From: Bacilli bacterium
GTDB lineage: Bacteria; Bacillota_I; Bacilli_A; ML615J-28; CAG-313
Length of the DNA stretch: 64,000 nucleotides
Direction of reading: 5' to 3'
Assembly (NCBI GenBank): GCA_045119035.1
Contig: JBGVCU010000057.1
Location: 37,238-101,237 of the forward strand
Below the pieces are notes generated by a model. That model did not search any database, was not told the DNA's origin, and saw only the letters and a list, made by a program, of their open reading frames with translations. Positions 35,635-55,361 of this stretch are shown piece by piece; within the stretch, counting starts at the first letter, position 1; every line of letters begins with the position of its first letter. The translations under genes were made by a program, and so were the position numbers.

Positions 35635-36900
35635 GTGATTATTATGATCGATAAATTATTGCAAGAAGAAGCTTACTTATCATATAAATTTTTAATTGAT
35701 AATACTAATTTTGAAGAAAATCATCCTGGTGCTGGTTTAACAATTGATAGATCATCAAGAGATGATATGGCTACAATTGCTGCTAGTGGATTTATGCTAT
35801 CAGGACTTGTTATTGGTGTAGAACGTGGTTGGGATACATATGAAACTAACTTACAAAGAGCATATGTTACACTTAAAAACTTTAACGATAACATTCCAAA
35901 CTTCTTAGGTATGTTTGTACATTACGCAGATCCAAAAACAGGAAAAAGATATAAAAAATGTGAATACTCAACAATTGATACTGCACTATTTTTAAATGGT
36001 ATGATTACAGTTGACTCTTATTTTAAAGAGGAAAAAATCCATGAGCTAGTGTTAAGTATCTATGGAAGAATTGATTGGAACATTTTTACTTTTAAACGTA
36101 GAGGTCACTTACAATTTAGAATGGCTTACAACGATATTACTGGTGGAGATTACCTTGATAAAAATGAACATGGTTGGATTTATCATTGGAGTATGATTGC
36201 TGAACAACTATCTATGTATTTACTTGCAGCAGGATCAAAAGATATTACTAATGATGATGCTTTAAGACTATTTATGGGGTTTGATAGATATTCAGGTGGA
36301 TACAATGGGCATAACTATTTATATTCACCAATGGGGTCTTTATTTGTTTATCAATATTCTCATGCATGGTTTGATTTTAATAAATATTTAGATACAAAAG
36401 GATTTGACTGGTATAAAAATACTCAAGAAGCAATTGTTGCCAATTATGAATATTGTCGTGACAATCAACACCGTTTTAAAACATTTAAAGATGCTTGGGG
36501 GCTTTCAGCTTGCGATGGACCTAAAGGATATGTATCATATGGTCATCCACCTTTTGGTTGGGAAGATGAATTAAATCACCCAGATTTAATTGAAAGAACT
36601 GATGGAACTATTGCTATATATTCGTTACTATCTTCTTTACCATTTCATCCTGAACTAGTAAAAAATACAGTCAAAAATATATATGAAAAATATCCAACAT
36701 TATTCAGAGAATATGGATTTGTTGATAGTTTCAATAATGAAAATGGATTATGGGTTGGGGAAGATTATCTAGGTATTGATAAAGGTATTACTTTACTTAT
36801 GATAGATAACTATTACCATGGTACAACTTGGAAATATTACGTTGAAAATGAAATTATTAAGAGGGGACTACAAAAACTTCAGTTTCAAAGAAAGGAGTAA
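35635..36900 (+). CDS. Cytoplasmic (alpha/alpha)6-barrel glycoside-hydrolase-like protein (GH144-like endo-beta-glucanase candidate)
   Basis: No signal peptide. Paralogous to lipoprotein 50730-52106, with a shared GIDKGI(T/S)(L/V)LMI(D/E)NY end block and central W-rich helices. Family call is tentative. Confidence 0.5.
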   Translation: MIIMIDKLLQEEAYLSYKFLIDNTNFEENHPGAGLTIDRSSRDDMATIAASGFMLSGLVIGVERGWDTYETNLQRAYVTLKNFNDNIPNFLGMFVHYADPKTGKRYKKCEYSTIDTALFLNGMITVDSYFKEEKIHELVLSIYGRIDWNIFTFKRRGHLQFRMAYNDITGGDYLDKNEHGWIYHWSMIAEQLSMYLLAAGSKDITNDDALRLFMGFDRYSGGYNGHNYLYSPMGSLFVYQYSHAWFDFNKYLDTKGFDWYKNTQEAIVANYEYCRDNQHRFKTFKDAWGLSACDGPKGYVSYGHPPFGWEDELNHPDLIERTDGTIAIYSLLSSLPFHPELVKNTVKNIYEKYPTLFREYGFVDSFNNENGLWVGEDYLGIDKGITLLMIDNYYHGTTWKYYVENEIIKRGLQKLQFQRKE

Positions 36901-36903
36901 TAA

Positions 36904-37872
36904 GTGGTTACAATAAAAGATGTTGCAAAAGCTGCAGGAGTTTCTATTGCTACTGTATCATATGTATTAAACAATGATCCAAGAATAAAAAAAGAAACTG
37001 CTGAGAAAGTTTTGAAAGTTAGCAATGAGTTAAATTATGTTGCTAATGGCTCTGCAAAAATTTTAAAAACAAAAACAACAAACATTGTATTAACGGTTAT
37101 TCCTGAATTTGGAGGTCCAGTTCATGCGGAAATAATCGCTAATATTCATAAAACATTAAAAGAGCGAAATTATCAAATGTTAGTATGTGCTGGAGATATT
37201 GCTGAAGATATTTTATCTAGACAACTAACTGATGGAGTAATTGTATTAGATCCAAAAGTTAATCCTGAAATATTAAAAAAACTTGCTAAAACAAAAATAA
37301 AAGTTTTAGATACAAGAAAAATTTATAATTCAGACGATAATGTATATGTAAACCGTATAGATAGTTTTACTCCTTCAAAAGAACTTACAAAAATTGTTAT
37401 TAATGAAGGATATAAAAAAATTGGTTTCATGCATGGTAATTTAGAATCTCCAGATAACATCAAAAGATTTAACGGATTTAGTGAAGCCTTAGAAGAATCA
37501 AATATTACTCCGAATTGTATTTTGTATGGTAATTTTACTGAGGATGATGGATATAAGGCAATTAAAGAATATGTAGAAAACGGGAATATCTTACCTGAAG
37601 TATTATTCTGCTCAAATGATGAAATGGCAATAGGTGTTATTAATTATTTGAAAAATGCTGGATATAATTTGCCTAAAGATATAAAAATAATTGGATTTGA
37701 TAATATTAAAGCTGGTTTATATACTAATCCAACTCTTTCTACAATTGATATTAACTCAGTTGATTGGGCGAGAAATCTTGCTAATATTATGATTGATTTA
37801 ATTGAAAATAAAGATATAAATCTTAATAAATATATTCTAAAATATAAAATAATTAGAAGAGAATCTTTCTAA
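36904..37872 (+). CDS. LacI-family transcriptional regulator
   Basis: GTG start after AAGGAG. N-terminal HTH MVTIKDVAKAAGVSIATVSYVLNN. Periplasmic-binding-fold C-terminal domain. Confidence 0.85.
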   Translation: MVTIKDVAKAAGVSIATVSYVLNNDPRIKKETAEKVLKVSNELNYVANGSAKILKTKTTNIVLTVIPEFGGPVHAEIIANIHKTLKERNYQMLVCAGDIAEDILSRQLTDGVIVLDPKVNPEILKKLAKTKIKVLDTRKIYNSDDNVYVNRIDSFTPSKELTKIVINEGYKKIGFMHGNLESPDNIKRFNGFSEALEESNITPNCILYGNFTEDDGYKAIKEYVENGNILPEVLFCSNDEMAIGVINYLKNAGYNLPKDIKIIGFDNIKAGLYTNPTLSTIDINSVDWARNLANIMIDLIENKDINLNKYILKYKIIRRESF

Positions 37873-37905
37873 AAGAGACACAGTAAAAATGTGTTTCTTT
37901 TTTGT
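37873..37905 (+). terminator. Rho-independent terminator
   Basis: GAGACACA-GTAAAAA-TGTGTTTC (one G-U pair) followed by TTTTTT. Confidence 0.5.
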
Positions 37906-37919
37906 TTTCCGTAAAAATG

Positions 37920-37945
37920 TTACATATATATTTATATATATGTAA
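37920..37945 (+). promoter_or_regulatory. 12-2-12 inverted repeat TTACATATATAT-TT-ATATATATGTAA upstream of the SBP promoter
   Basis: Perfect arms; followed by AAAACGTTTGCA and the TGTATAAT -10. Confidence 0.3.
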
Positions 37946-38020
37946 AACGTTTGCATTTTCATCCAAAAAAGTGTATAATTATATACGTAAAAAGAGACGT
38001 AAATAAAAATGACGATTGAA

Positions 38021-38036
38021 TTTGAAACGTTTCAAA
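38021..38036 (+). promoter_or_regulatory. Perfect 16-bp palindrome TTTGAAACGTTTCAAA between the -10 and the RBS of the SBP gene; candidate LacI-family operator
   Basis: Perfect dyad centred on CG, 15 bp upstream of ATG 38051. Confidence 0.45.
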
Positions 38037-38050
38037 ATAGGAGGACAAAA

Positions 38051-39502
38051 ATGAAAAAAATTATGCTATTTTTAGCTACTGCAATTTTAACTTTCGTTTT
38101 AGTTAGTTGTGGTAATCCAGGCGATACTCCAGGTACTGGTGATGGAGAAAAAGATATCGTATTAACTTACGCTGCATGGAACTTAGGATCTGCTGATTCT
38201 GACACTCCAAATATGGAAAGATTAATGTTAGAAGAATTTGAAAAAGCACATCCTGGTATTAAAGTAGAAGTTGTTGAACGTCCAAAAGTTCCCGGAACTG
38301 ATGGAGATCAAGCATGGAATGAATTCTTAGGAGCAAAAGCTTCTGTAGGACAATTACCAGACGTATTCATGGCTGATAACATTCCTTACTATGTAATCAA
38401 TGACTGGGCTTATAATTTATCAACAATTGCTAATGCAGATGCTGAATATAAAAATATTTCAACTGATATTACAGGAGCTGCAACATATGAAGGTAAAGTA
38501 ATGGCATTACCAAGCGCTGTTCACTATATGGGTTATGTAGTTAACAAATCTTTATATGAAACTAAAAACTTAGATGCTCCAACTGTTGAATCAACTATGG
38601 AAGAAGTTTTAAGTTTAACTAAACAAGCTGCTGACCATGGTAGTACAACTCAACAAGGTGTTGTTGGATTCGAAGGTATTGAACATATTTTACACTGGTA
38701 TCCAGCTCAATTAAATGAAGATTATGGATGGTTTACATTTGATGGTGAAAAATTTAATTTAGATAGTGCTGAATTCCAAACAGCAGTAGAATTATATCGT
38801 GAATTAAAACAATCTCCTGACTATGTATTAGAAGCATTACAATATGTTTCTGATCAAGAAGGATCAAATGTTGTTTTAGAACAAATTTTCCCTAATTTAG
38901 ATTACTTTAACAGTAATGCAATTTTATGTAAATGGTTCTATACATATGATTTTGGTTGGATGCAACAAAAAATTGACAGCGGTGAATACTATTGGGATTT
39001 AGATTTCATTGGTACTCCAGTTGTTAACGGTGTTAAAAAAGTTCCATCAGTAATTGACTTCTTAACAATCGCAAAGACTAGTGAACATCCTCAAGAAGCT
39101 TATGAACTTGCAAAATGGATGGGATTTGGAAAAGAAGGTTACTTAAAGAGAATAGAATTATCAAACGAAGTTGAAGGTATTTCATTAGTAAACTTTGCAC
39201 CAATTCAAAATGATGCAGATTTAATGGATGAATATTTCGGTATCTACCCATCATTCACAGGATTAAGATCAATTATCGAAGCAGGTAACTTTGTAGTTGA
39301 ACCTCCAAAATTCCAAGTTGGATATGATAAAGTTCGTTATAACGGAAATTATAATGAAGACAACAAAATGGGTGATATTATTAACCAATTAATGGGTGGA
39401 GAAGTGTTAATCGCTGATATCAAAGATGCACTTAACGGTAGAGCAAACGCTATCTATCAAGCAGAATATGCAACTTTCTACTCTGAATTAGAAAAAAGAT
39501 AA
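38051..39502 (+). CDS. Sugar ABC transporter substrate-binding lipoprotein (family 1 / CUT1-like)
   Basis: ATG after AGGAGG. Lipobox LVSC plus a Gly/Asp/Thr-rich linker. Family-1 SBP blocks. Optimal-looking codon usage. Confidence 0.8.
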   Translation: MKKIMLFLATAILTFVLVSCGNPGDTPGTGDGEKDIVLTYAAWNLGSADSDTPNMERLMLEEFEKAHPGIKVEVVERPKVPGTDGDQAWNEFLGAKASVGQLPDVFMADNIPYYVINDWAYNLSTIANADAEYKNISTDITGAATYEGKVMALPSAVHYMGYVVNKSLYETKNLDAPTVESTMEEVLSLTKQAADHGSTTQQGVVGFEGIEHILHWYPAQLNEDYGWFTFDGEKFNLDSAEFQTAVELYRELKQSPDYVLEALQYVSDQEGSNVVLEQIFPNLDYFNSNAILCKWFYTYDFGWMQQKIDSGEYYWDLDFIGTPVVNGVKKVPSVIDFLTIAKTSEHPQEAYELAKWMGFGKEGYLKRIELSNEVEGISLVNFAPIQNDADLMDEYFGIYPSFTGLRSIIEAGNFVVEPPKFQVGYDKVRYNGNYNEDNKMGDIINQLMGGEVLIADIKDALNGRANAIYQAEYATFYSELEKR

Positions 39503-39516
39503 TTTATAAATAATTT

Positions 39517-39556
39517 AAGTACCAAAATACAAATAGTCTGTATTTTGGTACTTTGT
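39517..39556 (+). terminator. Rho-independent terminator (possibly leaky, since the next gene starts 24 bp later)
   Basis: GTACCAAAATACA-AATAGTC-TGTATTTTGGTAC followed by TTTGTTTTT. Confidence 0.55.
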
Positions 39557-39579
39557 TTTTAATAATAAAGGAGCAAACA

Positions 39580-42500
39580 ATGAAAAGAAAAATTTGGATT
39601 ATTGTTATAGCGGTTGTTATTTTAGCAGTTATCGTATTTGCAATTACTGGTTCAAAAACAGATGCTCCAAATATTAACTTAGATAATACTGAGTTAGATT
39701 TGACTTTTTCTGCAACAGATGAATCATATTTAAAATACAAAGAAGATAATAAAAATTTACCAATCGCAAATCAAGAATTTATTATTTTTCCAGAAGATTT
39801 AACTAGTTCAGAAGTAGAGTTTAATTCAACTAATGTTGAAAATCATCCTGAACTTAAAGAAGTATTCCACTGGGAAAAGAATTCTACATCCACAATTTCA
39901 TTTGTTTTAGATGATAATAATGTTGAAACACATTTAGCTAAAAAACTATATGTTATTGAAATTGAATACTATTCTTTAGTAGATTCAATTATTGATATTG
40001 AATTTGGATTAGAAATAAATGGAAAAACTCCATTCTTTGAAGCTTCTCAAATCAACTTAACAACTCTATGGAAAATGAGTGGAGAAGTAAGTGTTGACCG
40101 TTATGGTAATGATGTTAATATGTCTCAAGATGTATATAGATCATGGCAAACAGCTGTACTTCAAGATTCAACTAGACTTGCTAAAGAAGGATTAATTTTT
40201 GCTTTAGAAGAAGGAGATGAAATCTCTTTAACAAAAATTAATGGAGAAGTAAAAATTGGTAGAATTATTGTGAGACCAATTGAAAAACATGTTTCATATG
40301 AACAATATATTGGAAATAACACAGTTAAAAATACTGAAGCTATTAGATATGAAGCAGAACAAATGCTTAATAAAAGCAACACAACAATCAATATGAGTAC
40401 AAGTAGAGAAGTTGGTGTTGAACCATTTGATGTTAAAAATTTAAGACTTAATATCATTGGTGAAGGTTCATGGGGATCTTCAGGAGAATTTATTACTTGG
40501 GAAGTAGAAGTGCCTGAGGATGGTTATTATAACCTTGCGTTTAAAGTAAAACAATCAACTGAAAACACAACATCATATCGTACATTATATGTAAATGGAG
40601 AAATTCCATTTGAAGAAGCAAAACATTTACCATTCTCATATACATCTGAATGGACAAACGTACCTATTCAAGGAATTGATGGTACTAAATATGCTATTAA
40701 ATTAAATGCAGGAAAAAATGAAATTAGATTAGAAGTTGATAGTACATTATATCATTCTATTTCTGAGAAATTAAGCTCAATTACTGCTGAAATGAATGAA
40801 ATGGGTCTAGATATTACTAAATATACAAACGGTAATACATCAAAAGGTATTGACTGGGATATTGAAGAAAACTTCCCTGATATGAAACCTAAAATTCAAA
40901 AATGGGTTACTGAATTAAATTTAGTAATTGATACTTATAGAAAAATTTCAGGATTTAATAAAACTACAACATTATCACAAGATTTAGGTACAGCAGTACA
41001 AAAATTAGAAAAAATCATTGCTGATATTGAAGAATTGCCAAGAAGACTTTCACTTTTATCAGAAGGTTCTTCATGTGCTGCCCAACTTGTTGCAGGACAA
41101 ATGGATTCGGTTTTAACTCAAGGATTAGTTGTTGATAGTTTCTATATTTACTCAAATGAAGAAGATTTACCTAAACCAACAGGAAACTTTATTCGTTCAT
41201 TATGGGTAGGAATTCAAAGATTCTTTATTTCATTTTTTGATGATTCTTATAAGACAGATTCATCAAATGATGATGAATTAATCGTTTGGGTTAATAGATC
41301 TAGACAATATGCGGATGTTATTCAAAAATTAGCTGATGCTGCAACTGCAAATGGTGAATTACCATTCCAAGTTAAAGTATCTCTAATGAGTGATGATGGA
41401 AAATTAATTTTAGCAAACTCTGCAAACCAACAACCAGATGTAGCTTTAGGGGTTTCTGCTTGGATTCCAAATGACTATGGTATGCGTGGTATGTTAACAG
41501 ATTTAAGACAATTTGATGGATATTTAGATTTAATTAGTGAATTTAATCCTGAACAATTAGTTCCAATGACATATGATGATCATCTATACGGATTACCAGA
41601 AACAGAAAACTTCTATGTTTTATTCTATCGTACAGATACTTTAAATAAATTAGGTTTAACTATTCCAAATACATGGGATGATGTAATCGATATGTTACCT
41701 GTTTTAAAACGTTATGATATGGATTTCTATATTCCACTTTCAAACGGATCATCATCAAAATCATTTGATACAACTGCACCATTTATTTATCAATTTGAAG
41801 GTGAAGTATATTCATACAACAATAAAGGTATTTTAACTGGTGGTTTAGAAAATGAACAAACAATTCAAGCTTTAGAATTTATTACAGATTTATACACTGA
41901 ATATGGATTACCTTACCAAGTATCAAGCTTCTTTAATGAATTTAGATACAATAGAATTCCTATTGGTATTGCTGATTTCTCAACATATTTAAATTTATTA
42001 AATGGTGCTCCAGAAATTCAAGGTTTATGGGATATTACTGTTGTTCCTGGAATTAAAGTAACAGATGGTTCTGGAAATTCTAGAGTTAACCGTTATATGC
42101 CTGGTGCTCAACAAGCCGGTGTAATTTTTGAAAAGAGCGAAAAACAACAAGAAGCATGGTATTTCTTAAGCTGGTGGATGAGTAAAGATACTCAATCTGA
42201 ATATGCTAGTACAATGGTTAATACTTTAGGTAAGAGATATTTATGGAATACAGGTAATATGGAAGCATTCAAAGAACTTGCTTGGAATGAAGATCATAAA
42301 AAAGTCATTATGGAACAATGGACTCATTTAAAAGAAGTTTCAAGAATTCCTGGATATTACATTGTAGAACGTGAAATTTCTAACTCATGGAATAAAGTAG
42401 TTTATAACGATGAAAACTTAAGAAGCACACTTAGTGATGCTATGATTAAAATTACAAAAGAAATAACTCGTAAAATGCAAGAATTTGGTTATGTTGATAG

Positions 42501-42585
42501 TAAAGGAAATGTAACAGATAAACAATATATAATTCCTTCAACAGAATCAATTAATAAATGGAAGGAGGGAAATAAAGATGAGTAG
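39580..42585 (+). CDS. TM-anchored 1010-aa protein: ~520-aa unknown N-terminal extracellular region fused to a family-1 SBP domain
   Basis: ATG after AAAGGAG. One N-terminal TM (IWIIVIAVVILAVIVFAI). C-terminal half carries SBP blocks (LANSANQQPDVALGVSAWIP ... NFYVLFYRTD ... W). Overlaps the next permease gene by 8 nt. Confidence 0.6.
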   Translation: MKRKIWIIVIAVVILAVIVFAITGSKTDAPNINLDNTELDLTFSATDESYLKYKEDNKNLPIANQEFIIFPEDLTSSEVEFNSTNVENHPELKEVFHWEKNSTSTISFVLDDNNVETHLAKKLYVIEIEYYSLVDSIIDIEFGLEINGKTPFFEASQINLTTLWKMSGEVSVDRYGNDVNMSQDVYRSWQTAVLQDSTRLAKEGLIFALEEGDEISLTKINGEVKIGRIIVRPIEKHVSYEQYIGNNTVKNTEAIRYEAEQMLNKSNTTINMSTSREVGVEPFDVKNLRLNIIGEGSWGSSGEFITWEVEVPEDGYYNLAFKVKQSTENTTSYRTLYVNGEIPFEEAKHLPFSYTSEWTNVPIQGIDGTKYAIKLNAGKNEIRLEVDSTLYHSISEKLSSITAEMNEMGLDITKYTNGNTSKGIDWDIEENFPDMKPKIQKWVTELNLVIDTYRKISGFNKTTTLSQDLGTAVQKLEKIIADIEELPRRLSLLSEGSSCAAQLVAGQMDSVLTQGLVVDSFYIYSNEEDLPKPTGNFIRSLWVGIQRFFISFFDDSYKTDSSNDDELIVWVNRSRQYADVIQKLADAATANGELPFQVKVSLMSDDGKLILANSANQQPDVALGVSAWIPNDYGMRGMLTDLRQFDGYLDLISEFNPEQLVPMTYDDHLYGLPETENFYVLFYRTDTLNKLGLTIPNTWDDVIDMLPVLKRYDMDFYIPLSNGSSSKSFDTTAPFIYQFEGEVYSYNNKGILTGGLENEQTIQALEFITDLYTEYGLPYQVSSFFNEFRYNRIPIGIADFSTYLNLLNGAPEIQGLWDITVVPGIKVTDGSGNSRVNRYMPGAQQAGVIFEKSEKQQEAWYFLSWWMSKDTQSEYASTMVNTLGKRYLWNTGNMEAFKELAWNEDHKKVIMEQWTHLKEVSRIPGYYIVEREISNSWNKVVYNDENLRSTLSDAMIKITKEITRKMQEFGYVDSKGNVTDKQYIIPSTESINKWKEGNKDE

Positions 42586-43513
42586 TAAAGGTAAAATAGC
42601 AACTTTTATCGAAAAAGAGAAAAAAGCATTTAAAACCGATGATAAATCAGCGTATTTATTTGCGGCTCCATATATCATCTTATTTACAATTTTCATTATT
42701 CTTCCAACAATTTATGCGATTTATTTGTCATTTACAAGTTTTAATATGGTTGGAAAACCTAAATGGAATACTTTCCAAAACTATATTTTCTTACTTACAA
42801 GTGACTCTGAATTCATGAAATATATATTACCTAATACAATTAAATTCAGTTTAATTGTTGGACCAGGTGGATATATTTTATCATTTATGATGGCTTGGTG
42901 TTTATCACAATTACCTCATAGATTAAGAACAGTTTTAGCTGTAATTCTTTATTCTCCATCACTTACTGCCGGTATTACAATGAGTGTTGTATGGAAGGTA
43001 GTATTTGCGGGGGACTCAAGTGGTTACCTAAACTATATTCTGATGGAACTTGGATTGATTGTTGAGCCTATTGCTTTCTTACAATCCGAAAAATACTTAT
43101 TTACAATAATGGTTATTGTTACCCTTTGGGGTAGTATGGGTGTTGGGTTCTTAGCAATGCTTGGAGGTATCCTAAATGTAAACCCAGAACTATACGAAGC
43201 GGCTTACTTAGATGGTATGCATAGCCGTTGGCAAGAAATCATTTATATTACAATTCCACAAATGAAATCTTCAATGTTATTCGGTGCGGTAATGACAATT
43301 GTAGGAACATTTAGTTCCGGTGCAATTGGGGTACAACTATCCGGTTCAAACCCAACACCAAACTATTCAGGTTCATTAATTCTGAACCATATTGAAGACT
43401 ACGGATTTATTAGATACGACATGGGATATGCGGCTGCCTTATCTGTTGTATTATTAATAATTATCTATGTATTTAGTAAAGTGGCTAATGCTTTATTTAA
43501 GGAGAAAGACTAA
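42578..43513 (+). CDS. Sugar ABC transporter permease (MalF/UgpA-like)
   Basis: Six TM helices; EAA loop EAAYLDGMHSRWQEIIYITIPQ. Confidence 0.85.
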   Translation: MSSKGKIATFIEKEKKAFKTDDKSAYLFAAPYIILFTIFIILPTIYAIYLSFTSFNMVGKPKWNTFQNYIFLLTSDSEFMKYILPNTIKFSLIVGPGGYILSFMMAWCLSQLPHRLRTVLAVILYSPSLTAGITMSVVWKVVFAGDSSGYLNYILMELGLIVEPIAFLQSEKYLFTIMVIVTLWGSMGVGFLAMLGGILNVNPELYEAAYLDGMHSRWQEIIYITIPQMKSSMLFGAVMTIVGTFSSGAIGVQLSGSNPTPNYSGSLILNHIEDYGFIRYDMGYAAALSVVLLIIIYVFSKVANALFKEKD

Positions 43514-46469: not shown

Positions 46470-48720
46470 AACAAAGATAATCATCTCAAGTATTTTATTA
46501 CTTTTAATTGTAACTGCTATTAGCGTTTCTATTTACGCTAGTATCGACGAAAGTGATGTTGAACTTGCTGGATTTAATAATATTAGTGAATTCTATCCAT
46601 CAAATAGACATACATATCAAGAAGATTATAAAACTGCAACAAGTGTTGCTCCTGAGGTTTTAGGAGACAAAGTAAAAGAAATTTCTACTGAAATTGGTAA
46701 AGTTGAAGTTGATGAAGAAACATTAGCTTTCAAGTTTACAAACAATAGAGGTTATACTTGGGCTAGTACAGTAGATTATACAAAAGAAGATGCAGAACTT
46801 AATTCAAAAAATAAAAATAGAGTTAGATCTGCGATAATTTTAAATGTATATGATACTACAAGTGCATCATATAATATAAGAGAATATTATATGTCAGATG
46901 CACAAAGCGTTACTGTTTCTGAAATTACAAATGGATTTAGTGCTAAAGTTAAATACTATGAAAAAGCTAAAAAATATCTATTAGATATTACAATTACAAT
47001 CAATGTTACATTTACAAATGATGGAATTAATGTTTCAATTCCAAGTGAAACAATTATTGAAAATGGTGATTTCTTAGTAAATAATATTTTAGTATATCCT
47101 TATTTTGGAAGTGTTAAAGAAAATCAAGTTCCTGGATATATCTTTGTTCCAGATGGTGTAGGTGCTCTTGTAAGATATAAAAAAGCATCAACTGTTTCTC
47201 TAACAAATTATGAAAAATATATTTATGGTAAAGATTTATCATACTCAGCATCTTCAAATTTATTAACTGAAGATGTTCAAGATTCAAAAATTTATGCTCC
47301 TGTATACGGTTTTGTACATGGTGTAAATCAAAATGCTATGTTTGCTGTTATTGAAGATGGTGCTGAATACGGAAGCGTTAATGTAGAATTCTCTACAAGC
47401 TCAATGAAATATTCTACAGTTTATCCACGTTTTACATATCGTAGAACATATTCTCAACCAATGGATAAATCAGGAAATACAATTACTTTATTACAAAAAG
47501 ACAAAAATGAATTTGATATCAATATTAAATTCTTATCATTAGAAAATGAACAAGCTAACTATGTAGGTATGGCAAATGCTTATAACGATTACCTACAAAG
47601 TACTCAAAATCTTTCAAATAAACAAAACAATTCATCAATTAGTCTAAGAGTTGATACAATTGGTCTTGAAAGAACAGAAGGTGTATTATTTGATAAGAAA
47701 ATCGTTATGACAACTTTCAAAGAATATAAAGAAATCTTAGATACTTTAACTAACTCTGGTGTAAGTAATATTACTGGTGTATTTAAAGGATTTACAAACA
47801 ATGGTGTATCTTGGGCTGCTCCAAATTATGAAAAAGTTTCAAAGAAATTAGGATCACAAAATAGTTTAGAAGACTTAGTTGAAAACTACAATGTTTACTT
47901 TGAAACAGAATATCAAAAAGCAACATCACGTGTTGGTGGATATAATTCATATTTTGATTTAGCTAAAAAAATTAACGATCAACGTTATGCGTATACATAC
48001 GGTGATTATGATGCTTATTTACTTACTCACAGTAAAACTGTAGAAGTATTAAAAGAAAGTGTTGAAAAACTAGAAAAAGCAACAATTAAAAATTTATATA
48101 TCCAATCTATGGGAAGCTTATTATATTCAGATTTTGCAAATGATGTTTCATTAACAGAAGCTCAAGCTATTTATAATAATGCTTTAAAAGAAGTAAAAGG
48201 TAATGTTGCATTATCAAGTGTATATGCTTATCTTTGGGGTTCAATTGATGAATATTTCGATTTCCCATTATATAGCAGTCAATATTTAACATTTGATGAT
48301 ACTGTTCCATTCCTTGCAATTACATTATCTAATTCAATGAATCTATATTCTTCATATGCTAACTTCTATGCATATCCAAGAGAAGAATTATTAAGATTAG
48401 TTGATTATAATGTATATCCTTCATTTATTGTTACAAATGAATCTTCAAGTTTACTTGAAAAAACAAATTTAAATAATATCTATTCTTCAAAATTTGAAGA
48501 CCTAGCAAACGCTGTTACAACTTACTATCAATTTGTTAATACTCCACTTAAAAATGTAATTGGAGCAAGTCTTGTTTCAAGAACAATTCCATCAAATGGT
48601 ATTGTAATTAATAAATATAGTAATAACGTTGAAATTATTATTAACTATACAAACGTAAAACAAGTAGTTAATGGTGTTACAGTTGAAGCTATGAATTATC
48701 ATGTAGGAGGTGTAAACTAA
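46459..48720 (+). CDS. Signal-anchored 760-aa extracellular protein of unknown function
   Basis: GTG start 9 nt after AAGGAGG, overlapping the previous gene by 11 nt. The stop overlaps the next ATG by 1 nt (TAATG), so it is embedded in the transporter operon. Confidence 0.5.
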   Translation: MRSKTKIIISSILLLLIVTAISVSIYASIDESDVELAGFNNISEFYPSNRHTYQEDYKTATSVAPEVLGDKVKEISTEIGKVEVDEETLAFKFTNNRGYTWASTVDYTKEDAELNSKNKNRVRSAIILNVYDTTSASYNIREYYMSDAQSVTVSEITNGFSAKVKYYEKAKKYLLDITITINVTFTNDGINVSIPSETIIENGDFLVNNILVYPYFGSVKENQVPGYIFVPDGVGALVRYKKASTVSLTNYEKYIYGKDLSYSASSNLLTEDVQDSKIYAPVYGFVHGVNQNAMFAVIEDGAEYGSVNVEFSTSSMKYSTVYPRFTYRRTYSQPMDKSGNTITLLQKDKNEFDINIKFLSLENEQANYVGMANAYNDYLQSTQNLSNKQNNSSISLRVDTIGLERTEGVLFDKKIVMTTFKEYKEILDTLTNSGVSNITGVFKGFTNNGVSWAAPNYEKVSKKLGSQNSLEDLVENYNVYFETEYQKATSRVGGYNSYFDLAKKINDQRYAYTYGDYDAYLLTHSKTVEVLKESVEKLEKATIKNLYIQSMGSLLYSDFANDVSLTEAQAIYNNALKEVKGNVALSSVYAYLWGSIDEYFDFPLYSSQYLTFDDTVPFLAITLSNSMNLYSSYANFYAYPREELLRLVDYNVYPSFIVTNESSSLLEKTNLNNIYSSKFEDLANAVTTYYQFVNTPLKNVIGASLVSRTIPSNGIVINKYSNNVEIIINYTNVKQVVNGVTVEAMNYHVGGVN

Positions 48721-49655
48721 TGGAAAATAAGAATTTAGATTCTCAAGTTAGTCAAATTGAACAACCTCGTAAAATGAAAAAAATGAGTAAGAAAACTAGA
48801 GATACTTTAGTTGGATATTCATTTATCGGTATTTGGATTATTGGTTTCTTAGTATTTATGTTAATCCCTGTTATTAACTCTGTAATTTATAGTTTCAGTG
48901 TTGTTAAAATTGAAAGTACAGGTATTAAGATTACTCCAAACGGAACTAAAAACTTCTTAAATATTTTCCAAGCTCCAGAAGGTCTTGCTTTTACCGAAGC
49001 ATTACTTGGATTTGCTAAAGAATTAATCGTTCAAGTTCCAATTATTATTGTATTCTCAATTATTATTGCTATCTTATTAAATCAACCAATTAAATGTCGC
49101 GGTTTATTTAGAGCAGTTTTCTTCTTACCAGTTATTATTTCATCTGGTCCAGTTATTAATGAATTAGTAACTCAAGGTGCAGGTGGAGCAAGTTTAATGT
49201 CTTCAATGGGATTTACAACAATGTTAGAAGACTTATTAGGACCAACTCTTGCTGAACCTATTACAGGACTATTCTCTGATATTATTATTATATTCTGGTT
49301 CTCAGGAGTACAAATTTTAATTATGCTTGCTGGTATTCAAAAAATGGATAAACAAGTATATGAAGCAGCTCACGTTGATGGTGCTGGAAGCTGGGAAATT
49401 TTCTGGAAAATTACTTTACCATCACTAAAAGCTTTAATTTTCGTTAGTACAATTTATACAATTGTATTATTATCAACATTCTCTAACAATGAAGTAATTG
49501 TTCAAATTAAGAATAATATGTTTGCAACAGATGCTAACTTCGGTTATGGTTTCGCAAGTGCAATGTCATGGATTTACATGCTTGTTATGGCGTTATTCAT
49601 TATTCTTGTTTGTGTTGTGTTACTTCCTAGAGATAAGAAAAGAGGTGCTAAATAA
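48720..49655 (+). CDS. Sugar ABC transporter permease (second pair, MalF-like)
   Basis: EAA loop EAAHVDGAGSWEIFWKITLPSLK; six TM helices. Confidence 0.85.
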   Translation: MENKNLDSQVSQIEQPRKMKKMSKKTRDTLVGYSFIGIWIIGFLVFMLIPVINSVIYSFSVVKIESTGIKITPNGTKNFLNIFQAPEGLAFTEALLGFAKELIVQVPIIIVFSIIIAILLNQPIKCRGLFRAVFFLPVIISSGPVINELVTQGAGGASLMSSMGFTTMLEDLLGPTLAEPITGLFSDIIIIFWFSGVQILIMLAGIQKMDKQVYEAAHVDGAGSWEIFWKITLPSLKALIFVSTIYTIVLLSTFSNNEVIVQIKNNMFATDANFGYGFASAMSWIYMLVMALFIILVCVVLLPRDKKRGAK

Positions 49656-50728
49656 TGGTATTACTTACTTTCGCAATTATTTTAGTCATCGCCCTTATTA
49701 TTTCATTAATTAGTTATGTAATTAAAGAATTTAAAAAACCAAAAGGTGAAAGATTTGATGTAAAAGGTCAAATCAACCAAAAGATTAATACATTAAAAAA
49801 TCTTAATAAACAAAAAGTTAAAAACTTCTTATTTGGAACTAACTTTAGACGTGGTTGGTTACCAAGTGCTGTTGTATATGTTTTATTAATTAGTATTGGA
49901 TTTGTATACTTATATCCAGTATTATATATGATTTCAAACAGTTTCAAAAGTTTAAATGACATTGTTAACCCATCAGTTAGTTGGGTTCCAACACAATTTT
50001 ATTTAGATAACTTCTCAAGAGCATTTAGAGTATTAAACTTCTTTAAAGTATTATTAAAGAGTTTACCAGTTACTTTACTTCCTGCAGTATTACAAACAGG
50101 TATTTGTTCTGTAATTGGTTATGGATTTGCTAAATTTGAATTCAAAGGAAAATTTGTGGTTTTAGTACTAGTTATTTTAGCATTCATTATTCCTTCTCAA
50201 ATTTATATGATTCCTAAATATGTATTATTCTATGATATGGGATTCTTCGCAAAAGGTAAAGAAAATATGCAATTCTTAACAATTGCACTTCCTGCATTAT
50301 TAGGACAAGGATTAAACTCATCAATCTTTATTCTAATTTTCTATCAATTCTTTAAGATGATTCCATATTCATTAAATGAAGCAGCAGAAATTGATGGTTG
50401 CGGTCCATATAGAACATTCTTCACTATCGGTGTTCCTCTTGCAGGTCCTGCATTCTTAATCTGCTTCTTATTTGGATTTGTATGGTATTGGAATGAAACA
50501 TATTTCTTAAGTATGTTTGCTCCTGAATTCCCTAACTTACAAATTAAATTATCATACTTTGTATCAGAATATACTGAACTTTACAAAGATGATCAAATGT
50601 TAAAATTAAACGAAGGTGTAAGACTAGCTGCAACACTTCTAATCTTACTTCCAATGTTAATAATTTATCTATTCTTACAAAAATGGTTCGTTGAAGGTAT
50701 CGAACGTTCAGGTATTACAGGTGAATAA
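49655..50728 (+). CDS. Sugar ABC transporter permease (second pair, MalG-like)
   Basis: EAA loop EAAEIDGCGPYRTFFTIGVPLAGP; six TM helices. Confidence 0.85.
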   Translation: MVLLTFAIILVIALIISLISYVIKEFKKPKGERFDVKGQINQKINTLKNLNKQKVKNFLFGTNFRRGWLPSAVVYVLLISIGFVYLYPVLYMISNSFKSLNDIVNPSVSWVPTQFYLDNFSRAFRVLNFFKVLLKSLPVTLLPAVLQTGICSVIGYGFAKFEFKGKFVVLVLVILAFIIPSQIYMIPKYVLFYDMGFFAKGKENMQFLTIALPALLGQGLNSSIFILIFYQFFKMIPYSLNEAAEIDGCGPYRTFFTIGVPLAGPAFLICFLFGFVWYWNETYFLSMFAPEFPNLQIKLSYFVSEYTELYKDDQMLKLNEGVRLAATLLILLPMLIIYLFLQKWFVEGIERSGITGE

Positions 50729-50729
50729 T

Positions 50730-52106
50730 ATGTTTAAAAATTTTAAAAAATTATTATTAATTTTATTCTTATTCTTATTTTCATTTGCAATTGTAAGTTG
50801 TGATGATCCAACACCAGGTGGTGAAAATCCTGGAGAAGATGAAATTCCTCCAGTTAATACAAAAGATTATCGTACAAATGTTAAAGAAAACATTGATCCA
50901 GTTTTATTAGAGGAACTTGAAGGAGGCTTCAGGTTCTTCTGGGAAACTGCCAATACAAAAGAAGGTTCATCAGGATATGGATTAATTCCAGATAGATTTA
51001 ATACATATACTAATGCACCTGGAACAGTTGCTTCTATTGCTTCAATTGGATATGGTTTATCTGCAATTCCTATTGGAATTGAATACGGATGGATTACTAA
51101 AGAAGAAGGATATGATAGAGCACTTAAATCATTACAAACTCTTTGGAATTTAAAAACAACTCATGGATTCTATTATCACATGGTAAATAGAATGACAGGT
51201 TTAAGAGAATGGAGTAGTGAAGTTTCAGTTATTGATACAGCAATTTGTGTAAATGGTGCATTAACTGTTGGTCAATATTTCGGTGGAGAAATTTTAAAAC
51301 TTGCTCATGATATTTATAAAAGAGTTGAATGGGATTGGTATTATGATGAAGGTGCAAATAAATTCTACATGGGTTATACACCTGAAAGAGGATTTAGTGG
51401 TCACTGGAATGAATATGCAGAACAATTAATGGTTTATGTATTAGCAGCTGGAAGCCCTACATATAAAGTAGGAAAACAAGCTTACAATTTTATGAAATTC
51501 AGCAGTAAAAAAGCTGATGCAACAGAAAACTACGGTTCATTCTATATGACATGGACAGGTAGTCTATTTACTTATCAATTCTCACATGCATGGATCGATT
51601 TTAGAAATATCGAAGATGCAAATGGTGTAGATTGGTTTACAAACAGTGTTAATGCTTCAAAAGCATCAATAGCATATGCAGTTAAAAATTCAAAAACATA
51701 TAAAACATATAGTAATGTTTCTTGGGGAGCAACAGCATGTGATGGTCCAGGTGGATACTGTGGTCCTTATGGATCAGGTCCATCAAGCGGAAATGCCCAT
51801 GTTTCTGATGGAACAATTCCTCCATGCGGAGCTATTGGATCTATCGTATTTACTCCAACAGAATCAATTGCAGCTATGAATAACTATCGTACATATGATA
51901 GATTATGGTCAAAATATGGATTTAAAGATGCATATAACCTAGATGTTTCAGAAGCTGGATGGTATGGAAATGATATCATCGGTATTGATAAAGGAATCAG
52001 CGTTCTTATGATTGAAAACTATATTTCAGACTTTATTTGGAATATGTTTATGGATAATATGTATGTACAAGCTGGTTTAAATGAATTAGGTTTTAAAGAA
52101 GTTTAG
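50730..52106 (+). CDS. Lipoprotein (alpha/alpha)6 glycoside-hydrolase-like enzyme (extracellular paralogue of 35635-36900; GH144-like endo-beta-glucanase candidate)
   Basis: ATG 1 nt after the previous stop; lipobox IVSC; Pro/Gly/Glu-rich linker; collinear with the cytoplasmic paralogue. Confidence 0.55.
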   Translation: MFKNFKKLLLILFLFLFSFAIVSCDDPTPGGENPGEDEIPPVNTKDYRTNVKENIDPVLLEELEGGFRFFWETANTKEGSSGYGLIPDRFNTYTNAPGTVASIASIGYGLSAIPIGIEYGWITKEEGYDRALKSLQTLWNLKTTHGFYYHMVNRMTGLREWSSEVSVIDTAICVNGALTVGQYFGGEILKLAHDIYKRVEWDWYYDEGANKFYMGYTPERGFSGHWNEYAEQLMVYVLAAGSPTYKVGKQAYNFMKFSSKKADATENYGSFYMTWTGSLFTYQFSHAWIDFRNIEDANGVDWFTNSVNASKASIAYAVKNSKTYKTYSNVSWGATACDGPGGYCGPYGSGPSSGNAHVSDGTIPPCGAIGSIVFTPTESIAAMNNYRTYDRLWSKYGFKDAYNLDVSEAGWYGNDIIGIDKGISVLMIENYISDFIWNMFMDNMYVQAGLNELGFKEV

Positions 52107-52115
52107 GCGTGAAGT

Positions 52116-55100
52116 ATGAAGATTAAAAACAATTTACAAACAATAAATATAGAATCAGCTGGTTTAGAATTCAAATTCTTACCATCTGGGGACATTAATA
52201 CAATTAAATTTAACAATAACAATATTTCTATGTATAGAGGTACTACATTAGATGGTACACTAGGAAATTTTTATTTAAAAACAATGGATGATGATGGTAT
52301 TGTTTCATACACTAAATTAATTGGTGTTGACAGTCCATCAAGCTTTGGAGTTAAAGATAATAAAGCAATATATTCAGGAACATATGAAGGAATCGAATAT
52401 AAATTAGTTTTAACAGTTAAACATCACACATGGTTTTGGACATTACAATTAACTGGTAATAAAAATGCATCAGTATTTTATGTCCAAGATATATCTTTAA
52501 ACTCGCCATCTGCAAATGAAGCTTACAATTGTCAATATTTAGATCATCAAGTATTTGAAACAGAATCTGGATATAACATTGTAACAAAACAAAATCAAGG
52601 TGAACCTTTACTTATTCAATCAGGATCATTAACCAAAAATATTTCTTATGCTACTGATGGATTTGATTTCTTTGGAAATGCTTATAAATTATATAACGTT
52701 CCAACAGCAATCTCAGAAACTGGTTTACCATCAAAGATATATCAATACGAATTTGCTTGTCATTGTTTTGAAACAGAAAACTATGATTTATCAAATGGAG
52801 TTGAAGTAATTTTCTATAGTAGTTTATTAGAAAATTATCATACTTTAGGTAATCAAATTAATGTTGATGATATAAAAAATCAATATCATGAATTAGATCA
52901 TAATATTGAAATAGATAATCTAAATAAAGTTAATTTAAAAGTAGATTATCAAAATACTTATCCTTATGTTTCACTTAAAGGAAAAGTTTATAATGAACTT
53001 AAAAAAGGGCGTATAGATGAAGAATACCTTGATGATGAATTAGTATCTTGGTTTGATAAATCTGGAGTTCACTATGTTGATTCTGTAAAAGAATTATATG
53101 TAGAACGTCCTCATGGAATGGTTCATATATCAAATGGTTTAAAACCAATTGATGATAAGACATTCAGTACTACTTGTTGGATTTTTGGTGTATTTAATTC
53201 ACATATTTGTTATGGTAATACTAATTTTAATAAAATGTTAACTCATAATAAATCAGCATTAAATGTATTAAAAACAAGTGGGGAAAGAATTTTTGTTAAA
53301 GTTGATAAAGAATATTATTTATTAAATCTTCCTGGTATGTATACAATGGATGTTAATACAAGTACTTGGTATTACCAAATTAAAAATGATATCCTAAAAA
53401 TTACTACTTCAGTAAGATATGAAACAGGATTAGTTCAAACTAATATTGAATCACTTAAAAATAAAAAATATGATTTCATTATCTCTGATAACTTAATGAT
53501 GGGTTCAGATGAAAATGCGCATCCTATTAGTTATACAACACTTGATTCAAAAGTAATCTTTAAATTTGCTGATAATACATTTTCTCATGATCGTTATCCA
53601 GATTTAGAATTCGTTGTAGATACTAAAACTGATGGTACTTATAAGTATGGATCAGATGAAGTATTCTTTGAAGATAAAAAATCATATGGTAACCCAATTT
53701 TAACAATTAGCTATAAAAAAGCCTCTCATATCGAATTAATTCACTCAGTGTCAAAAGATGATACATTCTATGACATTAATGAATTACAAAACGAATATAA
53801 TCAAAAGTTTAATGAAAACATTAATCATTTTAAATTAATTTCTAAAGATAAAGATTTTGAAAAATTCAACCATATCGTTAAATGGTATACACAAAATGCA
53901 TTAATTCACTATGCTTCTCCTCATGGATTAGAACAATATGGTGGAGCTGCTTGGGGAACAAGAGACGTATGTCAAGGTCCTATTGAATTATTTGCAACAC
54001 TAAAAAGATATGATTTAGTTAAATCAACAATTAAATATATCTACTCTAGACAATTTGTTGATACACATGAATGGCCTCAATGGTTCATGTTTGACAATTA
54101 CCGCAATATTCAAGCTTGGGAATCTCATGGAGATGTTATTGTATGGCCTTTAAGAACTGTGGCATATTACTTAGAACAAACAAATGATTTATCAATTTTA
54201 GATGAAGTTGTTCCATATAACAACCGTTATGACGGAGGATTTGTTGAAGAAGACACAATCTTAAATCATATTAAAAATGAAGTAAAATCAATTGTTGAAA
54301 GTATGGTAGATGATTACAACTTACCAAGCTACGGTGGTGGTGACTGGGATGATACATTACAACCTGCTAATAAATCATTAACAAATAAATTAGTTAGTGG
54401 TTGGACAGTACTTTTATTAATTGATGCGTTAAAGAAATTCAATGAATTTACAAATGATGAATTTAAAGATTTATTAGATAAATTAACTGCTTCATATAAT
54501 AAATATTTATTGATTGATGATATCCCATCAGGATTTGTATATTTTGGAAATGAAACACCAGAACTTATGTTACATCCAAGAGATAATAAAACTGGTATTA
54601 ATTATCGTTTACTTCCAATTACAAGAGGAATGATTGCTGAACACTACGATAAGAAAAATATTTCAAAATATTTAGAAATTATTGATAAAAACTTAATGCA
54701 TCCAGATGGTGTGCATTTAATGAACACAACAGTTAAATACCAAGGTGGAACACCAAAACTATTTGTTAGAGCTGAAACTGCTACAAACTTTGGACGTGAA
54801 ATTGGTCTACAATATGTACATGCTCATATTAGATATATTGAAGCAATGACAAAAATTGGAGAAGCAGATAGAGCATTTAAAGGACTTAATGTAATTTGTC
54901 CTGTAAACATTAAAAAACATGTTCCTAATGCTTTACCTCGTCAGGCTAACGTATATTTCTCTTCATCAGATGGAAACTTCAGAACTCGTTATCAAGCTGA
55001 TAAAGAATTTGATTTATTAAGAACTGGAGAAAGAGAAGTAAAAGGTGGATGGAGACTTTATTCAAGTGGTCCTGGTATTTATCTAAATCAATTAATTTCT

Positions 55101-55361
55101 AACTTCTTAGGAATTAAAACATATCAAAACGATTTAGTTATTGATCCTGTAATGCCTAAAAAATTAAAAGGATCAAAACTAGAATATGTTTACAATGGAA
55201 AACTTTTAAAAGTTGAATATCAAAAAACAAGTAAAATTACATCTGTAATTCTAAATGGAGAAGAAATTGTTAATATTCATAAAAATAACAAATATCGTCC
55301 ATCAGGAATTAGAATTGATTTCAATTTATTAAAAGATGTTAATGAATTAATTGTTAAATAA
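52116..55361 (+). CDS. Cytoplasmic GH94-like glycoside phosphorylase (size and blocks resemble 1,2-beta-oligoglucan phosphorylases)
   Basis: 1081 aa; no signal peptide; central (alpha/alpha)6 region with GLEQYGGAAWGTRDVCQGP and HGDVIVWPLR blocks. Confidence 0.55.
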   Translation: MKIKNNLQTINIESAGLEFKFLPSGDINTIKFNNNNISMYRGTTLDGTLGNFYLKTMDDDGIVSYTKLIGVDSPSSFGVKDNKAIYSGTYEGIEYKLVLTVKHHTWFWTLQLTGNKNASVFYVQDISLNSPSANEAYNCQYLDHQVFETESGYNIVTKQNQGEPLLIQSGSLTKNISYATDGFDFFGNAYKLYNVPTAISETGLPSKIYQYEFACHCFETENYDLSNGVEVIFYSSLLENYHTLGNQINVDDIKNQYHELDHNIEIDNLNKVNLKVDYQNTYPYVSLKGKVYNELKKGRIDEEYLDDELVSWFDKSGVHYVDSVKELYVERPHGMVHISNGLKPIDDKTFSTTCWIFGVFNSHICYGNTNFNKMLTHNKSALNVLKTSGERIFVKVDKEYYLLNLPGMYTMDVNTSTWYYQIKNDILKITTSVRYETGLVQTNIESLKNKKYDFIISDNLMMGSDENAHPISYTTLDSKVIFKFADNTFSHDRYPDLEFVVDTKTDGTYKYGSDEVFFEDKKSYGNPILTISYKKASHIELIHSVSKDDTFYDINELQNEYNQKFNENINHFKLISKDKDFEKFNHIVKWYTQNALIHYASPHGLEQYGGAAWGTRDVCQGPIELFATLKRYDLVKSTIKYIYSRQFVDTHEWPQWFMFDNYRNIQAWESHGDVIVWPLRTVAYYLEQTNDLSILDEVVPYNNRYDGGFVEEDTILNHIKNEVKSIVESMVDDYNLPSYGGGDWDDTLQPANKSLTNKLVSGWTVLLLIDALKKFNEFTNDEFKDLLDKLTASYNKYLLIDDIPSGFVYFGNETPELMLHPRDNKTGINYRLLPITRGMIAEHYDKKNISKYLEIIDKNLMHPDGVHLMNTTVKYQGGTPKLFVRAETATNFGREIGLQYVHAHIRYIEAMTKIGEADRAFKGLNVICPVNIKKHVPNALPRQANVYFSSSDGNFRTRYQADKEFDLLRTGEREVKGGWRLYSSGPGIYLNQLISNFLGIKTYQNDLVIDPVMPKKLKGSKLEYVYNGKLLKVEYQKTSKITSVILNGEEIVNIHKNNKYRPSGIRIDFNLLKDVNELIVK

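Follow-up and report, generated by a model that had tools for sequence, protein, structure and literature searches.

Which glycan does the twelve-gene locus at positions 35635-55361 serve, and why should a single sugar locus hold import machinery twice over? The locus lies on the + strand of a 64,000-nucleotide stretch of contig JBGVCU010000057.1 from a Bacilli bacterium (the whole of this 64-kb stretch is called the window here, and all coordinates are given in it). An initial annotation, made from the letters alone, had read it as a beta-glucan utilisation locus for beta-1,2- and/or beta-1,3-gluco-oligosaccharides with duplicated import machinery; the genes that it listed are all on the + strand where it had put them, and ten of the twelve genes of the locus were rightly described. 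Families of the window open reading frames (ORFs) were assigned with Pfam, and NCBIfam was tried for the proteins that found no match. Taking the results of the sequence, model and synteny comparisons together, we propose with a probability of about 0.8 that this is a locus under LacI control by which a member of Bacillota/Mycoplasmatota, low in G+C and akin to Acholeplasmatales, scavenges beta-1,2-glucan or sophoro-oligosaccharides. Beta-1,2-glucans are symbiosis and virulence factors, in the form of cyclic glucans in Rhizobiales and Brucella and of periplasmic glucans in enterobacteria and Xanthomonas, and to our knowledge it is only since 2014, and for no more than a few simple clusters, that their natural breakdown has been worked out. 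Specialists will not be surprised by the metabolic assignment; the uptake cassette is the new part.

Enzymes and substrate

The gene at the end of the operon (52116-55361) encodes a cytoplasmic protein of 1081 aa, in which residues 10-1068 could be aligned to LpSOGP (5H3Z), the SOGP or 1,2-beta-oligoglucan phosphorylase of Lachnoclostridium phytofermentans, with an E value of 2.6e-227 and 760 bits, against no more than 44 bits for every other structure of glycoside hydrolase (GH) family 94, the cellobiose, chitobiose and cellobionic-acid phosphorylases included. Four SOGP-type domains follow one another in the order PF21958 (6e-59), PF21250 (7e-64), PF17167 and PF21270, and the SOGP-specific N-terminal beta-sandwich (Ndom1), not found in other GH94 enzymes, is present, the alignment to 5H3Z running over the full length. 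Comparison of twelve LpSOGP residues with catalytic, phosphate-binding or substrate-binding roles (PMC5309861) showed the catalytic acid D760 and the phosphate-site H924 to be identical, within the motifs GGDWDDT and YVHAH, and likewise ten out of ten residues of the +1/+2 subsites (N138, Y141, Q621, G623, A626, R630, D631, R907, R916 and E917); Y1004 and S1006 fall outside the portion of the alignment compared. By its sequence the protein is a cytoplasmic 1,2-beta-oligoglucan phosphorylase of the SOGP type, which is the subgroup that had first been proposed for it from its size.

Two (alpha/alpha)6 enzymes accompany the phosphorylase, one a lipoprotein and the other its cytoplasmic paralogue, as had been recognised from the start, and both belong to family GH144. 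The lipoprotein (50730-52106; lipobox IVSC; PF10091, 3.8e-65) has as its best match in the PDB the Xanthomonas enzyme XcSGL (8XUL, 3e-66), with CpSGL of Chitinophaga pinensis also matched (5gzh, 2e-40). The paralogue (35635-36900; 421 aa; PF10091, 6.6e-56) shows neither a signal peptide nor a transmembrane (TM) segment, is 34% identical to the lipoprotein and has the same best match (8XUL, 4.8e-42). Both proteins match in addition 5GZH/5GZK (CpSGL) and 5Z06 (BDI_3064, also GH144), the last of which we take to be the sophorohydrolase. In the alignments to 8XUL, the lipoprotein keeps the equivalents of E239, F286 and Y367 of XcSGL, and the cytoplasmic protein keeps those of E239 and F286, the position of Y367 coinciding with an alignment gap; E239 (E211 in CpSGL) is the proposed general acid, and F286 and Y367 are clan residues (PMC12102758). 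The similarity scores of the two proteins do not discriminate endo from exo (sophorohydrolase) action; judged from these alignments and from its lipobox, the lipoprotein is a probable extracellular endo-beta-1,2-glucanase. A placement of the phosphorylase in a cellobiose or chitobiose clade, or of the (alpha/alpha)6 proteins in GH8 or GH15, was looked for as well, and neither was seen.

Could the locus target another beta-glucan instead, such as laminarin, some other beta-1,3-glucan or cellodextrins? The gene that would speak for this is the one encoding a GH81 endo-beta-1,3-glucanase lipoprotein 9 kb upstream (23857-26718), which the initial annotation had brought into relation with the locus and which is a genuine GH81 member (Pfam; PDB 6fop, 9e-64) carrying an Ig-like domain. 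Three large lipoprotein genes stand between it and the locus, however, and the operator motif described below occurs near it as a degenerate copy only (23761-23774, with one mismatch to the 12-nt pattern and three to the palindrome); because of this distance and this single degenerate copy we treat GH81 as separate. The phosphorylase, with its 760 bits against 44 at most and its conserved +1/+2 subsites, argues against the idea from within the locus, and so do both GH144 proteins, given that the characterised members CpSGL, XcSGL and BDI_3064 act on beta-1,2-glucans. On these phosphorylase and GH144 matches we rejected a beta-1,3-glucan or cellodextrin locus, which we hold to be extremely improbable; of the two substrates first suggested, beta-1,2-glucan stands and beta-1,3-glucan finds no support inside the locus.

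The transport cassette

Import is served by six genes in two blocks. SBP1 (38051-39502) is a lipoprotein (lipobox LVSC) and a family-1 solute-binding protein (SBP), whose ORF opens at 38009 with the real start at 38051, behind AGGAGG. It is followed by the TM-anchored bigSBP (39580-42585), a 1010-aa ORF if counted from 39553, the real start being at 39580. The permease genes perm1 (42578-43513, overlapping the end of bigSBP by 8 nt) and perm2 (43516-44400) form the first pair, and perm3 (48720-49655, having one base in common with the stop codon of the DUF5696 gene before it) and perm4 (49655-50728, with an additional N-terminal TM helix) form the second; perm1 and perm3 are MalF-type and perm2 and perm4 MalG-type, and all four belong to BPD_transp_1 and carry the EAA loop (E-A-A...G...I/V-P motif). 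From bigSBP through the SOGP gene, each intergenic gap measures 9 nt or less, where the genes do not overlap. The two family-1 SBPs and the four BPD_transp_1 subunits are the parts of CUT1-type (MalEFGK-like) importers. An export function was considered and ruled out, since all four membrane subunits are of the SBP-dependent MalFG type with EAA loops. The statement in the initial annotation that no ABC ATPase is encoded holds for the whole window, where no ORF matched ABC_tran in Pfam and the LSGGQ/E signature is absent in all six frames. Sharing of an MsmK/MsmX-type ATPase among importers is known from Bacillota, and we assume it here.

The two binding proteins differ in what they resemble. 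The best PDB match of SBP1 is 22hh (7e-51), one of five entries (22hh-22hl) that bear only the name "Extracellular solute-binding protein family 1", and 22hh is 69% identical to the SBP1 orthologue in the cassette of an Anaerolineales genome (L078, 1945-3051; L numbers are our labels for related loci). A literature search for a paper on these entries found none; structural work on an SBP1-type protein has evidently been begun by someone. In bigSBP the C-terminal 440 residues are a second family-1 SBP domain (Pfam), and the AlphaFold2 model (predicted local distance difference test, pLDDT, 86.8) places before it an N-terminal TM anchor, two beta-sandwiches and a helical bundle. The second of these beta-sandwiches resembles, weakly (E = 0.0076), a carbohydrate-binding module (CBM) of family 35, and homologues carry a recorded PF16990 match. 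By sequence, the SBP domain matches Lin1841 best among PDB entries, a protein that binds beta-1,2-oligosaccharides (1e-10). In Foldseek the domain reached a template-modelling score (TMt) of 0.81 to 5ysb, Lin1841 being one among many MalE-like matches, a binding protein for cyclic isomalto-oligosaccharides also among them; the full bigSBP model gave SBP-domain matches only and no match for the N-terminal modules.

Are the two import systems then copies of one another? The duplication first claimed is real in so far as there are two SBPs and two permease pairs. It is not a local one: perm1 and perm3 are 25.6% identical and perm2 and perm4 24%, SBP1 and bigSBP show no significant sequence similarity, and a recent tandem or local duplication of the transporter was ruled out on the paralogue identities of 24-26%. 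A scan with a DUF5696 profile, using one genome per species, returned at least 578 confirmed places, and for the best 80 of these we examined synteny by tblastn and blastp with the window proteins. The order SBP1, bigSBP, perm1, perm2, Yip1, DUF5696, perm3, perm4 was found in 80 of the 80 loci, and because it recurs in every one of these, from several phyla, the arrangement is far beyond chance. The transport block is, as far as these comparisons of sequence and gene order go, an old and rigid cassette rather than a local duplication, and its core is present in at least several hundred species. The hosts comprise Acholeplasmatales, Mariniplasma, Izemoplasma, Haloplasma, many Bacillaceae, Paenibacillus, Thermoanaerobacter and Mahella, besides Fervidobacterium, an Anaerolineales metagenome-assembled genome (MAG) and a Lachnospiraceae MAG; the named loci nearest to that of the window come from Acholeplasmatales, Mariniplasma and uncultured gut Bacilli.

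The company of the cassette in these 80 loci points to the same substrate. A GH144 gene is present in 54, mostly straight after perm4, and GH144 or SOGP lies within 10 kb in 66; about half of the 14 loci with neither are short or truncated stretches (4-17 kb). The cytoplasmic GH144 gene was found in 23. Other neighbours include a GH3 beta-glucosidase, a GH94 protein of 794 aa and a member of GH35, a family with the beta-1,2-acting member IALB_1185 (PMC8861115). In Acholeplasmatales we also observed a GH13 gene of the alpha-glucosidase type (full-length PF00128, oligo-1,6-glucosidase size) overlapping the end of the cytoplasmic GH144 gene (L009 16671-18278, L018 16740-18332, and other Acholeplasmatales); the window has no such gene, and its occurrence in beta-glucan loci may relate to cyclic glucans closed by an alpha-1,6 bond. 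Cultured carriers of the cassette are Paracholeplasma vituli, Acholeplasma equifetale ATCC 29724, Sutcliffiella horikoshii, Fictibacillus and Paenibacillus, and with a substrate assigned for this clade the function of the cassette becomes directly testable in them.

Comparison with the beta-1,2-glucan systems described so far shows where the novelty lies. The cluster lin1838-lin1843 of Listeria innocua encodes the SOGP Lin1839, the GH3 enzyme Lin1840, the SBP Lin1841 and two permeases (PMC12369401). It has in common with the window a cytoplasmic SOGP, an ABC importer without an ATPase of its own and the logic of import followed by phosphorolysis, but it contains a single SBP and permease pair and lacks GH144, Yip1, DUF5696 and the CBM fusion, whereas the window lacks the GH3 beta-glucosidase of Listeria. 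The clusters of CpSGL and XcSGL share with the window the GH144 family, the general-acid Glu, the clan residues and one extracellular copy; they are Gram-negative, with outer-membrane or periplasmic routes, whereas in the window, from a cell of wall-less or Gram-positive type, one GH144 copy is a lipoprotein and the other is cytoplasmic. Streptomyces griseus SGR_2422-2427 (GH193, GH1 and a Lin1841-like importer) is also a Gram-positive beta-1,2 cluster combining a glucanase with a CUT1-type importer, but its glucanase and glucosidase are of other families, it has no phosphorylase, and its transporter is a single one of three genes. Uptake in all these known clusters (Listeria, Streptomyces, and the GH144 clusters of Chitinophaga and Bacteroidota) relies on one importer of three genes or on outer-membrane systems; a second permease pair was found in none of them, nor was a CBM-SBP fusion, Yip1 or DUF5696. 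Many Bacillota and Acholeplasmatales, and some Thermotogota and Chloroflexota, thus use a far more elaborate uptake system.

Two proteins between the permease pairs

What stands between the two permease pairs? The initial annotation had passed over two large genes here, one for an NHL-TPR-Yip1 membrane protein (44409-46469, 686 aa) and one for a DUF5696 protein (46459-48720, 760 aa; PF18952, E 8e-145), and these are the least understood part of the locus: two protein families without assigned function inside the core of the cassette. Pfam and topology prediction give the first a signal peptide, an extracellular NHL beta-propeller, a TPR, a single TM segment and, at the C-terminus, a Yip1 domain with several membrane passes. 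The AlphaFold2 model of the second (pLDDT 91.6) shows an N-terminal TM helix and then, extracellular, a (beta/alpha)8 barrel flanked by two beta-sandwiches, the second of them C-terminal. Both proteins are outward-facing and membrane-bound by prediction, and they are translationally coupled to perm3 and perm4. A full-text literature search found no paper with the term DUF5696, and nothing relevant for Yip1 combined with SBP, permease and GH terms. In Bacillus subtilis YknWXYZ an ABC transporter has a Yip1-domain membrane protein as accessory subunit, and YknYZ is an exporter-type system for toxin protection. What the two cases have in common is a Yip1-domain protein whose gene accompanies an ABC transporter, on which it presumably acts; the partners in the window are SBP-dependent importers of the MalFG type, and its Yip1 protein bears a large extracellular NHL propeller.

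For DUF5696 a distant relationship could be traced. Foldseek with the model against the PDB gave GH129 first (5opq, 5e-30, TMt 0.70; NagBb), followed by GH101, GH36 and GH31, and a DUF5696 family profile run against PDB sequences detected the Zobellia enzyme ZgGH129 at 3.6e-5. A homologue search with a 152-aa fragment of ZgGH129 as query found nothing; an hhalign comparison of 81 DUF5696 orthologues from cassettes with seven GH129 homologues from marine metagenomes gave a probability of 98.2% and an E value of 3e-13 over 612 columns. With GH129 (the 3,6-anhydro-D-galactosidase of Zobellia and NagBb of Bifidobacterium), DUF5696 shares the same three-domain fold and a detectable sequence homology, while the identity is about 12% and DUF5696 is membrane-anchored and always encoded between ABC permease genes. 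On the profile alignment and the structural model, DUF5696 is a remote GH129 homologue, descended in our judgement from a GH129-like glycosidase. The catalytic pair of the Zobellia enzyme is presumably D486 and E517, D486N appearing in the title of a PDB entry. This pair is not aligned to conserved acids in DUF5696, and the confidence of the alignment there is low, and for these reasons we do not file DUF5696 as GH129.

Does DUF5696 nevertheless act as a glycosidase outside the cell, through an active site that has been rebuilt? It would then remove some feature other than the beta-1,2 bonds that is beyond the reach of GH144 and the transporters: an alpha-linked glucose, for example, or the one alpha-1,6 bond in a Xanthomonas-type cyclic glucan, or a branch. 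GH129, GH101, GH36 and GH31, whose fold and remote homology it shares, are families of retaining alpha-glycosidases, four acids (D239, D507, D621 and D/E656) are invariant or nearly so in the 81 orthologues, and the GH13 gene beside the cytoplasmic GH144 gene in Acholeplasmatales hints at an alpha-linked component of the substrate. Set against this, the GH129 nucleophile meets a column of S, Y or N (S560 in the window protein), and opposite the acid/base Glu there is a gap, in a block where hhalign confidence is 1-5 out of 9; the acidic column adjacent to the nucleophile, within the same low-confidence block, has Q in the window protein and D or E in 49 of the 81 orthologues. The protein is moreover kept beside quite different enzymes or none, which a generic structural or binding role fits better, and we regard catalysis by DUF5696 as a possible but doubtful explanation.

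Placing these proteins into a scheme of uptake, the route that we favour would begin with foreign bacterial beta-1,2-glucan bound to the cell surface through the CBM-like modules of bigSBP, with possible help from the repeat lipoprotein encoded upstream, and cut there to oligosaccharides by the GH144 lipoprotein. SBP1 and the SBP domain of bigSBP would load two separate MalFG-type permease heterodimers, both powered by the shared ATPase encoded elsewhere, and NHL-Yip1 and DUF5696 would most likely assist capture, processing or delivery for the second transporter (perm3/4). SOGP enzymes phosphorolyse sophorotriose and longer chains but not sophorose; the phosphorylase would take off glucose units as glucose-1-phosphate in the cytoplasm, and a beta-glucosidase encoded elsewhere would finish the sophorose. 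The cytoplasmic GH144 protein would trim imported chains whose length exceeds what SOGP accepts, or which offer it no free end to start from. The order of extracellular endo-cleavage, ABC import and cytoplasmic phosphorolysis, without a local ATPase, had been proposed from the outset and fits the anatomy of the genes. As to which SBP loads which pair, the SBP1 gene stands after perm4 and not before bigSBP in four loci (L024, L072, L082 and L084), which hints weakly at SBP1 working with perm3/4 and bigSBP with perm1/2.

The cytoplasmic GH144 gene also lends itself to a different account, in which the whole cassette would act as a single machine at the surface, bringing in long or cyclic beta-1,2-glucan mostly uncut, and cleavage would fall mainly to the cytoplasmic GH144. 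The CBM-SBP fusion and the repeat lipoprotein would capture the polymer, and NHL-Yip1 and DUF5696 would dock on and feed perm3/4. A cytoplasmic GH144 in 23 of the 80 loci is indeed difficult to account for if entry is limited to sophorotriose through sophoropentaose, sizes that SOGP handles unaided (PMC5309861). The genes for Yip1, DUF5696, perm3 and perm4 overlap or abut in an invariant order, five distant cassettes without SBP1 keep perm3/4, so that the second pair may use a non-classical SBP, and the binder of cyclic isomalto-oligosaccharides is among the Foldseek matches of the bigSBP domain. The position of the GH144 lipoprotein gene straight after perm4 in most loci, in turn, favours cleavage before import, and we know of no type I ABC importer that takes up rings of 17-25 units. 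This account therefore appears to us a tentative one, less probable than not by a good distance, and cleavage at the surface followed by import is the reading that we retain.

Six distant DUF5696 proteins (21-27% identity) keep the core bigSBP, perm, perm, (NHL/TPR)-Yip1, DUF5696, perm, perm; SBP1 is missing in five of the six, and L084 keeps an SBP after perm4. The surroundings of these six count among the observations that weigh against our interpretation of the locus, since they consist of GH43, GH130, an AraC regulator or only housekeeping genes. To the same side of the balance belong the likeness of bigSBP to Lin1841, which is weak at about 20% identity, the pairing of SBP1 with perm3/4, drawn from the four loci named, the catalytic pair of GH129, which faces no conserved acids in the DUF5696 alignment, and the finding by Pfam of no GH3 or GH1 gene, as a sophorose beta-glucosidase, in the window; a GH3 gene is present in the related loci L009, L018, L021 and L041. 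Because the distant versions adjoin other enzymes or none, specificity for beta-1,2-glucan is no property of the cassette itself: its core of seven genes is a generic platform, of which the beta-1,2-glucan version is one clade. It is conceivable, though we would not wager on it, that this core is an undescribed multi-part machine for glycan capture and import in Gram-positive and wall-less bacteria, a functional counterpart to the Sus-type systems of Bacteroidota, in which a glycosidase-derived DUF5696 (possibly a non-enzyme) and the propeller-Yip1 protein replace or complement the SBP at the second translocator. In such a scenario very large or cyclic glycans would be imported, here beta-1,2-glucan to be opened by the cytoplasmic GH144.

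Control of the locus and genes around it

How the locus may be controlled can be read from three promoter regions on the + strand. A promoter-like site, TTTACA-17-TATAAT (35581-35609; 11/12, TG-extended), precedes the cytoplasmic GH144 gene, and the gene of the LacI-family repressor (36904-37872; helix-turn-helix and periplasmic-binding-protein fold by Pfam) starts 4 nt 3' of it, the two being probably co-transcribed. A terminator-like hairpin (37871-37901) lies 3' of lacI. The transport and enzyme operon has the promoter TTTGCA-18-TATAAT (37950-37979, within the region 37944-38035), with AAAACGTTTGCA over the -35 box and the perfect 14-bp palindrome TTGAAACGTTTCAA (38022-38035) 3' of the -10 box but ahead of the SBP1 ribosome-binding site, and it ends in a terminator-like hairpin 3' of the SOGP gene (55368-55397). 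Between SBP1 and bigSBP there is a hairpin of 15-17 bp with a T-run (39517-39553), a probable partial terminator by which SBP1 would be made in excess. The third region (31628-31690) belongs to the gene of a 1284-aa lipoprotein (31713-35489, + strand), which is closed by its own terminator-like hairpin (35504-35534); here AAAACGTTTGCA (31628-31639) again covers the -35 box, with TAAACGTTTCAA (31679-31690) placed in the 5' untranslated region. Two sites arranged in this way are found at the promoters of both the SBP operon and the 1284-aa lipoprotein gene; the site before the cytoplasmic GH144 gene has a weaker variant, AAATCGTTTACA, over its -35 box.

The palindrome TTGAAACGTTTCAA is a candidate LacI operator. 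Upstream of the SBP1 gene, 25 of 67 related loci (Bacillaceae, Paenibacillus, Mahella, Thermoanaerobacter and Acholeplasmataceae) carry a palindrome of the GAAACGTTTC type, the background being about 0.1 per region, and this conservation across phyla supports an operator that travels with the system. LacI would repress the three promoters until an oligosaccharide effector is present. We place the 1284-aa lipoprotein gene in the regulon because the same operator pair precedes it, the regulon probably starting upstream at this gene. Just upstream of its promoter there is also a cre-like sequence, TGAAACCGATTTCA (at about 31604-31617), which by eye fits the CcpA consensus TGWAANCGNTNWCA and suggests, as a sequence match, that catabolite repression is added to the control by LacI. 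One more exact copy of an operator-like motif, TAAACGTTTGAA, was noticed on the - strand within the Yip1 gene (45177-45188), and it may be due to chance or be an internal regulatory site.

This kind of control bears on whether the locus might recycle or remodel beta-1,2-glucan made by the cell itself rather than scavenge it from other bacteria. Some Gram-positives do make cyclic beta-1,2-glucan, and a Thermoanaerobacter genome (L050) has the cassette together with GH144; PMC10834661 describes a Thermoanaerobacter italicus synthase of cyclic beta-1,2-glucan. Yet the 64-kb window holds no synthase of the GT84/GH189 type (Pfam), and LacI repression together with a cre-like site are the usual marks of a catabolic sugar operon, so that recycling seems to us quite unlikely and scavenging remains the preferred reading.

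The 1284-aa lipoprotein itself (lipobox LVAC) is built of repeats of about 128 aa, with a KPND motif at residues 588, 716, 845, 977, 1105 and 1228, and matches no family in Pfam or NCBIfam. Homologues adjoin the cassette in five genomes (L023, L062, L063, L070 and L073), and the protein is probably a co-regulated surface component of the system. Further upstream, between GH81 and the locus, we observed two paralogous lipoproteins (26914-29277, 787 aa, and 29430-31538, 702 aa), which have similar N-termini and 50% identity over 488 aa and match nothing in Pfam or NCBIfam; they might belong with GH81.

Beyond the operon terminator come a small kinase-like gene of the AAA_33 type (55605), a DUF1622 gene and, about 1.3 kb 3' of the terminator, an IS3-type transposase pair, a helix-turn-helix ORF and an rve integrase ORF (56721-57949). 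Two long ORFs elsewhere in the window gave no significant family match, one of 1436 aa (4368-8678), with faint helicase and P-loop hints only, and one of 1052 aa (19465-22623). No tRNA genes were found within the 64 kb, and metagenome contigs from two sequencing runs match the window. Its G+C content is about 27%, and in this AT-rich setting there occur a homologue of the sporulation protein YunB (11940-12581) and a fused IspD/IspF gene (10713-11846); together with a locus nearest to those of Acholeplasmatales, this hints at a lineage between the classical Firmicutes and the wall-less Mollicutes.

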